Of a DNA stretch of 64,000 nt, positions 1,736 to 53,016 are shown in pieces. The stretch comes from Malacoraja senta (lineage: Eukaryota). The translations under genes were made by a program, and so were the position numbers. The stretch covers positions 22,508,001 through 22,572,000 of the forward strand of contig CM075989.1 in assembly GCA_038087875.1 (NCBI GenBank), given 5' to 3'. Numbering within the stretch: position 1 is the stretch's first letter; every line of letters begins with the position of its first letter. The notes under the pieces were generated by a model, which was given only the letters and a program-made list of their open reading frames with translations, was not told the origin of the DNA and searched no databases.

Positions 1736-1789
1736 GAGGTGGGAGATTGCAACCTTCACGTGGTCCACCCTGTTTCGACGAATGCAATC
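1736..1789 (+). ncRNA. Minimal HDV-like (CPEB3-type) self-cleaving ribozyme fold at the 5' end of a short retroposon
   Basis: Manual fold: P1 GAGGTGG(1736-42)/CCACCCT(1765-71) with G1.U wobble and one A-C mismatch; P2 GATTGCA(1745-51)/TGCAATC(1783-89); P3 ACC/GGT; L3 TTCACGT; GT followed by a tiny P4 (TTCGA); J4/2 CGAA with candidate catalytic C1779. The element order matches the HDV double pseudoknot. Confidence 0.8.
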
Positions 1790-1871
1790 AACCCGGCGTG
1801 CACAAGCAGAAGATCAAACAGAACGAGTTGTCTTACAACTTTAGGCTGTGCACGCCATACGCAAGAAGAAG
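1736..1871 (+). mobile_element. ~135-nt ribozyme-headed short retroposon with (AAG)n tail, copy 1
   Basis: Closely similar to 26825-26963 and to the reverse complement of 16722-16853; ends ...GCACGCCATACGCAAGAAGAAG; no tRNA A/B boxes seen. Confidence 0.85.
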
Positions 1872-16721: not shown

Positions 16722-16853
16722 CTCTTCTTCTTCTTGCGTATGGCGTGCACAGCCTAAAGTTGTAGGACAACTTGTTCTATTTGATCTTATTTGATAGTAC
16801 ACTCCGGGTTGATTGCATTCATCGAAACAGTGAAGGTTGCAATCTCCCACCCC
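16722..16853 (-). mobile_element. Ribozyme-headed short retroposon, copy 2 (internally deleted)
   Basis: Reverse complement begins GGGGTGGGAGATTGCAACCTTCAC. Flanked by AAAACAATTAC (16711-21) and AAAACAATGAC (16854-64). An 11-nt deletion removes P3'/P1', and the J4/2 C is changed to T. Confidence 0.85.
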
Positions 16854-26803: not shown

Positions 26804-26824
26804 GTAAAACATATGTACAAGATA

Positions 26825-26963
26825 TGGGAGATTGCAACCTTCACGTGGTCCACCCTGTTTCGACTAATGCAATCAATCCGACGTGCACAAACAAATAGAT
26901 CAAATAGAACAAGTTGACCTGCAACTTTAGGCTGTGCACGCCATACGCAAGAAGAAGAAGCAG
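26825..26963 (+). mobile_element. Ribozyme-headed short retroposon, copy 3 (about 4 nt 5'-truncated)
   Basis: TGGGAGATTGCAACCTTCACGTGGTCCACCCTGTTTCGACTAATGCAATC...(AAG)4; flanking direct repeat AAGATAT at 26819-25 and 26964-70. Confidence 0.85.
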
Positions 26964-52816: not shown

Positions 52817-53016
52817 NNNNNNNNNNNNNNNNNNNNNNNNNNNNNNNNNNNNNNNNNNNNNNNNNNNNNNNNNNNNNNNNNNNNNNNNNNNNNNNNNNNN
52901 NNNNNNNNNNNNNNNNNNNNNNNNNNNNNNNNNNNNNNNNNNNNNNNNNNNNNNNNNNNNNNNNNNNNNNNNNNNNNNNNNNNNNNNNNNNNNNNNNNNN
53001 NNNNNNNNNNNNNNNN
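52817..53016. other. Assembly gap (200 N)
   Basis: Run of N. Confidence 0.99.

Follow-up and report, generated by a model that had tools for sequence, protein, structure and literature searches.

Self-cleaving ribozymes of the hepatitis delta virus (HDV) type are in print at the 5’ ends of the retrotransposons R2, RTE, baggins and L1Tc, and in early searches they turned up between genes in hundreds of copies, with a downstream sequence that is conserved and an upstream sequence that varies (PMC6765202). Here we describe a short retroposon at positions 1736-1871 of a 64,000 nt stretch of Malacoraja senta DNA (the window), whose first 54 nt, the head, resemble such a ribozyme. The closest described elements are the short internally deleted elements (SIDEs) of R2 as well as NARTc. 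They are short and have no open reading frame (ORF); an HDV-like ribozyme determines their 5’ end, and a long interspersed element (LINE) copies them in trans (PMC3414825, PMC3383444, PMC6765202). They are internal-deletion derivatives sharing both ends with their LINE (R2 and L1Tc), whereas the candidate LINE of our element has no HDV-like head and shares the C(AAG)n tail alone. Moreover R2 SIDEs insert into rDNA, while our element is dispersed. Elements resembling short interspersed elements (SINEs) and bearing a self-cleaving ribozyme are also described from Schistosoma. In contrast to our element, however, their ribozyme is a hammerhead, and they are apparently transcribed by RNA polymerase III (Pol III) and often arranged in tandem (PMC6765202).

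As to the ribozyme, the head shares with CPEB3 (RF00622) the helix order, a P1 that starts with GGGG and has G1.U at its base, L3 UUCACGU, the GU after P1’ and J4/2 CGAA. For CPEB3, P1.1 is described as one G-C and one U-U pair, G25.U20 positions a catalytic metal, and the catalytic C lies in a J4/2 of 4 nt (PMC4836649). At CPEB3 numbering the element has the same residues available for P1.1, G25.U20 and J4/2. In contrast, CPEB3 has a 7 bp P4 stem-loop where the element has a 5 nt linker, it differs in P2, P3 and the rest of P1, and it occupies a single intronic site instead of being a dispersed retroposon. HDV-like ribozymes without P4 are reported to be natural and self-cleaving, and their origin and function are called unsettled in the source (10.1101/2023.06.13.544163). 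Two of them, drz-Mtgn-1 and the theta ribozymes, resemble the element in having the double pseudoknot but no P4 domain. They come from metagenomes and gut phages and lie beside tRNAs, in contrast to a retroposon head in a large eukaryotic genome, and are likened here by their description only.

Our best explanation, to which we give a probability of roughly 0.7, is a ~136 nt non-autonomous retroposon whose RNA 5’ end is made by a P4-less HDV-like ribozyme formed by the first 54 nt. A sense copy within any host transcript would fold into P1 (7 bp, with G1.U36), P2 (7 bp) and P3 (3 bp), the core comprising L3 UUCACGU, P1.1 from C22-G37 and C44-G-A-A as J4/2. This fold would cut the bond 5’ of G1. 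The released RNA, with a hairpin and a C(AAG)n tail at its 3’ end, would be copied by the reverse transcriptase of a LINE through target-primed reverse transcription, giving rise to target-site duplications of 10-15 bp. The case for a ribozyme is built on the predicted anatomy together with the precise ends.

Copies in the window and structure of the head

Base numbers such as G1 or C44 refer to the element, all other positions to the window. Copy 1 lies on the forward strand at 1736-1871. Its head (1736-1789) reads GAGGTGG GA GATTGCA ACC TTCACGT GGT CCACCCT GT TTCGA CGAA TGCAATC; letters and helix parse are identical to those of the earlier note on this DNA. P1 is formed by 1736-1742 with 1765-1771, followed by J1/2 (1743-1744). 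P2 comprises 1745-1751 with 1783-1789, and P3 1752-1754 with 1762-1764, closing L3 (1755-1761). J1/4 (1772-1773), a 5 nt linker replacing P4 (1774-1778) and J4/2 with the sequence CGAA (1779-1782) complete the head. Its assignment as HDV-like is based on the sequence and on the alignment of a consensus copy to the Rfam models of CPEB3 and HDV-F-prausnitzii. The first base of J4/2, C44 of the element (1779), is the candidate catalytic cytosine; its counterpart in the CPEB3 consensus is the C of GCGAA.

About 70 nt and an (AAG)3 tail follow the head up to 1871. They include a body hairpin at 1795-1856 with the arms GGCGTGCAC (1795-1803) and GTGCACGCC (1848-1856), seen in the fold of the consensus copy and as a self inverted match, which is possibly the part recognised by the reverse transcriptase. 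The spacer ATACGC and the (AAG)3 tail occupy 1857-1871. No target-site duplication was detected for copy 1, and another repeat adjoins its tail at 1872.

A BLAST comparison of this stretch against the window gives three copies, as had been counted before. Copy 2 (about 26821-26960, forward strand) starts with five non-homologous bases, has CTAA as J4/2 and ends in (AAG)4; by eye it looks 5’-truncated by 5 nt with AAGATAT at both sides. Copy 3 lies on the reverse strand (16853-16724, G1 at 16853, tail (AAG)4). TGAA replaces CGAA, and an 11 nt deletion removes L3, P3’ and most of P1’. It is flanked by an 11 bp target-site duplication with one mismatch (16864-16854 and 16721-16711). For the 19-mer TTCACGTGGTCCACCCTGT the window has two occurrences, where 0.01 are expected. 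Copy 1 differs from the family consensus by G2A, leading to an A.C mismatch within P1. The heads of all three window copies are damaged; it is the family that carries the argument, not these copies.

The consensus head of the family carries GGGGTGG as 5’ strand of P1, as had been guessed from the window, and CC(A/G)CCCT as P1’; all other segments are those of copy 1. It forms 16 Watson-Crick pairs plus G1.U in HDV order (P1 7 bp, P2 7 bp, P3 3 bp), membership in the fold being judged by complementarity alone. The nested double-pseudoknot order P1-J1/2-P2-P3-L3-P3’-P1’-J1/4-(P4)-J4/2-P2’ is present with the exception of P4, for which there is solely UUCGA between J1/4 and J4/2. Since P4 is dispensable in described minimal variants, we assign the element to the minimal subgroup instead of excluding it from the HDV-like class. 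G1 stands opposite U36 as the wobble closing P1, in the consensus as well as in copy 1. C44-G-A-A aligns with CGAA of the CPEB3 consensus and thus represents a candidate catalytic C followed by purines; of 93 sampled copies, 86 retain C44 (hand tally). L3 UUCACGU and J1/4 GU are identical to CPEB3 and have the potential to form P1.1 and G25.U20. The likeness to CPEB3 noted earlier agrees with the Rfam consensus, which contains UUCACGU, CCCUGU and GCGAAU; UUCACGU, CCCUGU and CGAAU are identical in the element.

We scanned 71 nt of the consensus copy with Rfam. Two of 4,227 families matched at E ≤ 10, both of the HDV class, namely HDV-F-prausnitzii (RF02682; 15.9 bits, E 0.27, gathering 44) and CPEB3 (RF00622; 13.1 bits, E 0.22, gathering 35). 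Both alignments extend over the full length of the model; P1 and P3 are in register, while P4 is collapsed to 3-5 nt. A control scan over 151 nt of a LINE 5’ end gave no HDV family. A home-made HDV descriptor, a kind of check proposed in the earlier note, found 29 places in 264 kb, of which 28 are element copies, vs 3, 1 and 2 matches in three shuffles of these 264 kb (both strands). A bare descriptor match is not rare at genome scale. A match that opens exactly at the first base of both retroposon and RNA and contains known core loops is however not credible as chance.

The family across the genome

The genome searched is a 1.94 Gb assembly of 6,182 contigs. A DNA search returned 1,834 first-look candidates, and the 40 that were scored are each 95-100% identical. 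A 38-mer of the core occurs 321 times vs 0 for its control. An anchor consisting of the 11-mer TGCAATCAACC and one loosely fixed base 59 nt away matches 6,287 places vs 185 for the control. The first 100 anchor places listed comprise 93 element copies, 2 rearranged composite copies and 5 unrelated sequences (hand tally). Taken together these counts give a family of at least several thousand copies and bear out the high copy number suspected from the window. Two body variants exist, a younger one with ..AAACAGAAGATCAAACAG..TCTTAC.. and an older and more numerous one with ..AATCAAATAAGATCAAATAG..TCCTAC... Near-identical sequence is present in sequencing runs labelled as seven organisms, from ten studies.

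Mutations acquired after insertion are neutral, and variants common to many copies alone bear on function. The P1’ forms CCGCCCT (U5.G32) and CCACCCT (U5-A32) both pair. J4/2 reads CTAA (CUAA) in 10 of the 93 sampled copies; this variant keeps the C and two A and equals the consensus of the F. prausnitzii model. C44-G45 is a CpG, and genome-wide G45A (CAAA) is found at 433 places vs 235 for C44T (TGAA). Symmetrical CpG decay would give equal counts. The cytosine-sparing excess thus fits source copies that need C44. For the two other CpGs of the head the tally of 93 copies gives about 12 vs 8 and 5 vs 5.

Some further observations concern single copies. Positions 1 and 2 are far more variable than the rest of the element; 8 of the 29 best-scoring copies outside the window (L002-L030) start with TA, GA, GT, TG, GC, AT or AG in place of GG. 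A possible reason is that integration adds bases at the 5’ junction that are untemplated or mismatched. In L041 (about 1430-1530, contig C2362 of genome G000) an inverted fragment of the element’s own body is fused to the head, a palindromic rearrangement. An apparent composite, two matches that seemed to have 16 nt in common with another repeat (L062 and L063, G000:C1), turned out to be a rearranged element copy inside a long GA-rich duplicated block: the copy is interrupted between L3 and J4/2, and the block is present at two places 17 Mb apart.

Genomic 5’ ends

Target-site duplications were searched automatically (10-15 bp, at most one mismatch) in 56 full-length copies from the sampled loci and the window. 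This set is non-random, consisting of the 29 best-scoring copies, finds from the exclusion patterns described below and the three window copies, and two of its members represent one duplicated locus. A duplication of at least 10 bp was found for 37 of the 56 copies. It ends at the base before G1 in 35 of them and is one base off in 2. Several of the 19 copies missed by the test show shorter or imperfect duplications by eye (e.g. L009, L042, L052), and one copy (L036) starts 3 nt late. Flanks upstream of G1 differ between copies. The genomic 5’ end is thus precise at G1, and duplications together with the (AAG)n tail support the earlier description as a short non-autonomous retroposon.

We also looked for a longer element running through these boundaries. 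The exclusion patterns demanded other sequence behind the 3’ part of the ribozyme, or else in front of the body hairpin or of the last 17 nt. They gave mutated or deleted element copies and a stray 17 nt tail match (L053) only, each pattern missing by design any family that agrees with the element at an excluded base. The copies do not run on upstream of G1 as truncated versions of something longer; the duplications abut G1, and RNA 5’ ends map to the same base as shown below.

RNA 5’ ends in cells

Four raw-read RNA runs of organism A were aligned to the consensus copy (L005:1400-1740, element on the minus strand with G1 at 1636). In the single-cell runs X21 and X22, 1,024 and 825 reads carry an unaligned part beginning just beyond G1. 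Its consensus is CCCATTCACTCTGCGTTGATACCACTGCTT with an agreement of 0.72 (X21) and 0.68 (X22) and a median length of 31, and the reverse complement of this consensus is AAGCAGTGGTATCAACGCAGAGTGAATGGG. A SMART adapter is joined where the reverse transcriptase reaches the end of its template. Precisely this sequence, AAGCAGTGGTATCAACGCAGAGTGAATGGG, is named ‘5 prime SMART adapter sequence’ in the methods of PMC8408944.

At the junction three G of the adapter stand besides all four G of the element. Because the adapter G are additional to the G-run of the element, we reason that this speaks for template switching at a real RNA end and against strand invasion; an adapter invading at that G-run would have fused the two sets of G. 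This is direct evidence for abundant RNAs in vivo with their 5’ end at G1, give or take one base. The local depth at G1 in X21 is about 680-955 for sense and 234-338 for antisense reads, and the single-cell runs contain ~3-5 times as many sense as antisense reads.

Weighing the origin of the 5’ end

That the G1 end arises by self-cleavage is what we infer from these data, and a number of results weigh against it. First, an RNA 5’ end at G1 is equally expected from a transcription start at G1, and template switching cannot separate a 5’-OH from a cap. Second, the two bulk oligo-dT runs have no pile-up of read starts or ends at all, and 347 and 303 reads reaching G1 extend past it into flanks that differ from each other (agreement 0.41 and 0.38). 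It follows that many transcripts are either uncut or antisense, uncut sense and antisense being indistinguishable as the bulk libraries are apparently unstranded; these runs count against efficient cutting. Third, the Rfam scores lie far below gathering, with E near 0.2 even for a query of 71 nt, hence the element is not filed as a member of RF00622 or RF02682. In the Rfam comparison proposed in the earlier note, HDV-class families are the sole matches of the consensus copy at E ≤ 10, with no family at gathering over the window and no HDV family at E ≤ 10 in the region of copy 1 (1650-1950). Fourth, no covariation is seen in the family copies, which is explained by the family being young and nearly uniform. 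The change in P1 is one-sided, and looking for sister families that combine this P3 and L3 with another P1 gave 2 mutated copies only. Finally, the excess of G45A could stem from one lucky founder, the genome-wide counts covering the C44-G45 CpG alone.

Among the other explanations, the one that survives best is an ordinary SINE-like retroposon with an internal promoter starting at G1, the HDV-like fold being inactive or irrelevant. Precise 5’ ends in genome and RNA are expected of any internally promoted SINE, the element contains no TTTT, the ~3-5 fold sense excess in the single-cell runs is what an own transcript would give, and the bulk runs are without a start pile-up at G1. On the other side, ARAGORN finds no tRNA, and the Rfam scans (the window at gathering, 1650-1950 at E ≤ 10) contain no tRNA, 5S or 7SL family, which bears out that there is no tRNA or 5S head. 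With the general A and B box consensus, the best matches have 3 mismatches each and are equalled by 83% and 68% of 1,000 shuffles. Upstream flanks vary between copies. Furthermore an internal promoter leaves unexplained why a complete HDV-order fold with loops identical to CPEB3 begins at base 1, at a descriptor background of 1-3 per 264 kb. We thus consider this explanation unlikely. As to the wider claim that the element is promoter-less, A and B boxes were not found, and an unrecognised internal promoter may exist, alone or joined with a ribozyme. Having no Pol III-derived head, the element is SINE-like in size and behaviour (136 nt, non-coding, dispersed, duplications of 10-15 bp, C(AAG)n tail) and not a canonical Pol III SINE.

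The joined version supposes that the first ~54 nt act as internal promoter and ribozyme both, like Pr77/L1TcRz of L1Tc and NARTc. There a single 77 nt segment is described as promoter plus HDV-like ribozyme, in the non-autonomous element too (PMC3383444, PMC3185411). Such a double function would account for the sense excess and the fold together. No promoter motif was identified in the head, however, and the supposition adds an assumption beyond what the data demand, so that we rate it as similarly improbable, ranking just behind the promoter without a ribozyme. Finally, that the copies are 5’-truncated pieces of a longer element or the fold a chance parse, as the truncated look of copy 2, the late start of L036 and the 1-3 matches of the loose descriptor per 264 kb of random sequence might suggest, is highly improbable given the duplications abutting G1 in 35 of 56 copies, the RNA ends at the same base and the patterns for a longer element having returned mutated copies and the stray L053 only. 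Self-cleavage by the head hence remains our preferred explanation for the end at G1.

A candidate partner LINE

If the RNA is released in this way, a LINE has to provide the reverse transcriptase, and a young LINE with a C(AAG)n tail would supply this enzyme. Sequences of reverse transcriptases are extremely abundant in the genome (159,856 first-look candidates for RVT_1). The best RVT_1 matches were considered as partners and rejected, being L1-type LINEs with A-rich tails (L061 in G000:C2 and L064 in G000:C395; ORF2 of L061 is intact with 1,271 aa). A search with Exo_endo_phos_2 gave many equal-scoring copies with an open frame of 1,277 aa. One of them, L065:585-5733 (G000:C12), is a young LINE of 5.15 kb with a 12 bp flanking duplication, sitting in an apparent other mobile element. 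It encodes an ORF1 of 401 aa and an ORF2 of 1,277 aa with endonuclease, reverse transcriptase and RNase H domains. Its 3’ untranslated region is ~70 nt long, folds into a hairpin and terminates with C(AAG)7. Four further loci of this LINE family were sampled, and the one that reaches the 3’ end (L069) has the same C(AAG)n tail.

Element and L065 LINE share the tail unit, the base before the tail, a hairpin preceding it and the length of the duplication. With regard to the earlier idea of an autonomous LINE with the same 3’ tail, the common part is C(AAG)n and no further sequence. A local alignment of the two 3’ regions scores 21, a value reached by 142 of 2,000 shuffles and not above chance. 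No HDV-like head was found in the L065 LINE, neither by an Rfam scan of its 151 nt 5’ end nor by eye. Should this LINE be the partner, the element has its ribozyme from elsewhere. The exclusion patterns, each able to miss a family by design, revealed no LINE that carries the element’s own 3’ sequence, and no other (AAG)n-tailed repeats are present in 256 kb of sampled DNA. We therefore regard the L065 LINE as a candidate and no more.

The partner had been expected to be RTE-like. LINEs with two ORFs and an RNase H domain are not RTE-like, which applies to the L065 LINE. In L066:1-260 (G000:C4) we found a LINE C-terminus containing ...SFFPRTIKAWNNL..., a putatively RTE-like motif, followed by a (CCAAGAA)n tail. 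The sole putative RTE-like tail sampled is thus of another kind, and the sole C(AAG)n-tailed LINE found is not RTE-like, so that the expectation was not upheld.

Relation to known systems and significance

Ribozyme-headed retroposons and P4-less HDV-like ribozymes are both already in print. What is new is their combination, i.e. a P4-less core in a large eukaryotic genome in several thousand SINE-like copies, with a head that is not shared with a LINE and RNA 5’ ends seen in vivo. Our literature search, with Dfam and Repbase outside its scope, gave no paper joining HDV-like ribozymes with sharks, skates, elasmobranchs or cartilaginous fishes. On balance we lean to the stronger claim, less firmly than to the ribozyme as such, that the head is a 54 nt P4-less ribozyme active in animal cells, the smallest natural HDV-like ribozyme of eukaryotes, and serves as the sole 5’ end module of a family with a LINE-independent head and no Pol III head. 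If true, minimal delta-type ribozymes would also represent an independent module open to capture by mobile elements of eukaryotes, and domesticated ribozymes such as CPEB3 could derive from a pool of elements of this kind. A specific link to the origin of CPEB3, as brought up in the earlier note, is not supported. The bacterial HDV-like model scores as well as CPEB3 does (15.9 vs 13.1 bits), hence the likeness to CPEB3 fits shared constraints on the core.

Should the head cleave, the range of P4-less HDV-like ribozymes would grow beyond phages and metagenomes to include a large eukaryotic genome. Their task in it would be clear, namely to form the 5’ end of a retroposon RNA that has no promoter of its own. 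The element would provide a natural 54 nt core whose copies represent a ready-made mutational series. Even without cleavage, the element represents an abundant and unusual SINE-like family that has no recognisable Pol III head. Moreover, 5’ adapter junctions in public single-cell data can be used to map RNA ends of the ribozyme type.

Other sequence in the window

None of the 40 longest of 76 open frames in the window has a Pfam match. Between 5635 and 7256 all three forward frames are open over 412-491 codons; this region is A+C-rich (A 660, C 607, T 228, G 127) and likewise without Pfam match. An assembly gap of 200 N is located at 52817-53016. Short repeats far more abundant than the element occupy 1872-2100, thereby adjoining copy 1, and about 50 further places in the window. 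One of them contains the tRNA-like motif GGATCGAACC, another the sequence ...GATGCTGCCTG.CCCGCTGAGTTA.TCCAG.... BLAST gives 54 matches of these neighbouring repeats in the 64 kb, and the element often sits inside them, as for instance in L005.
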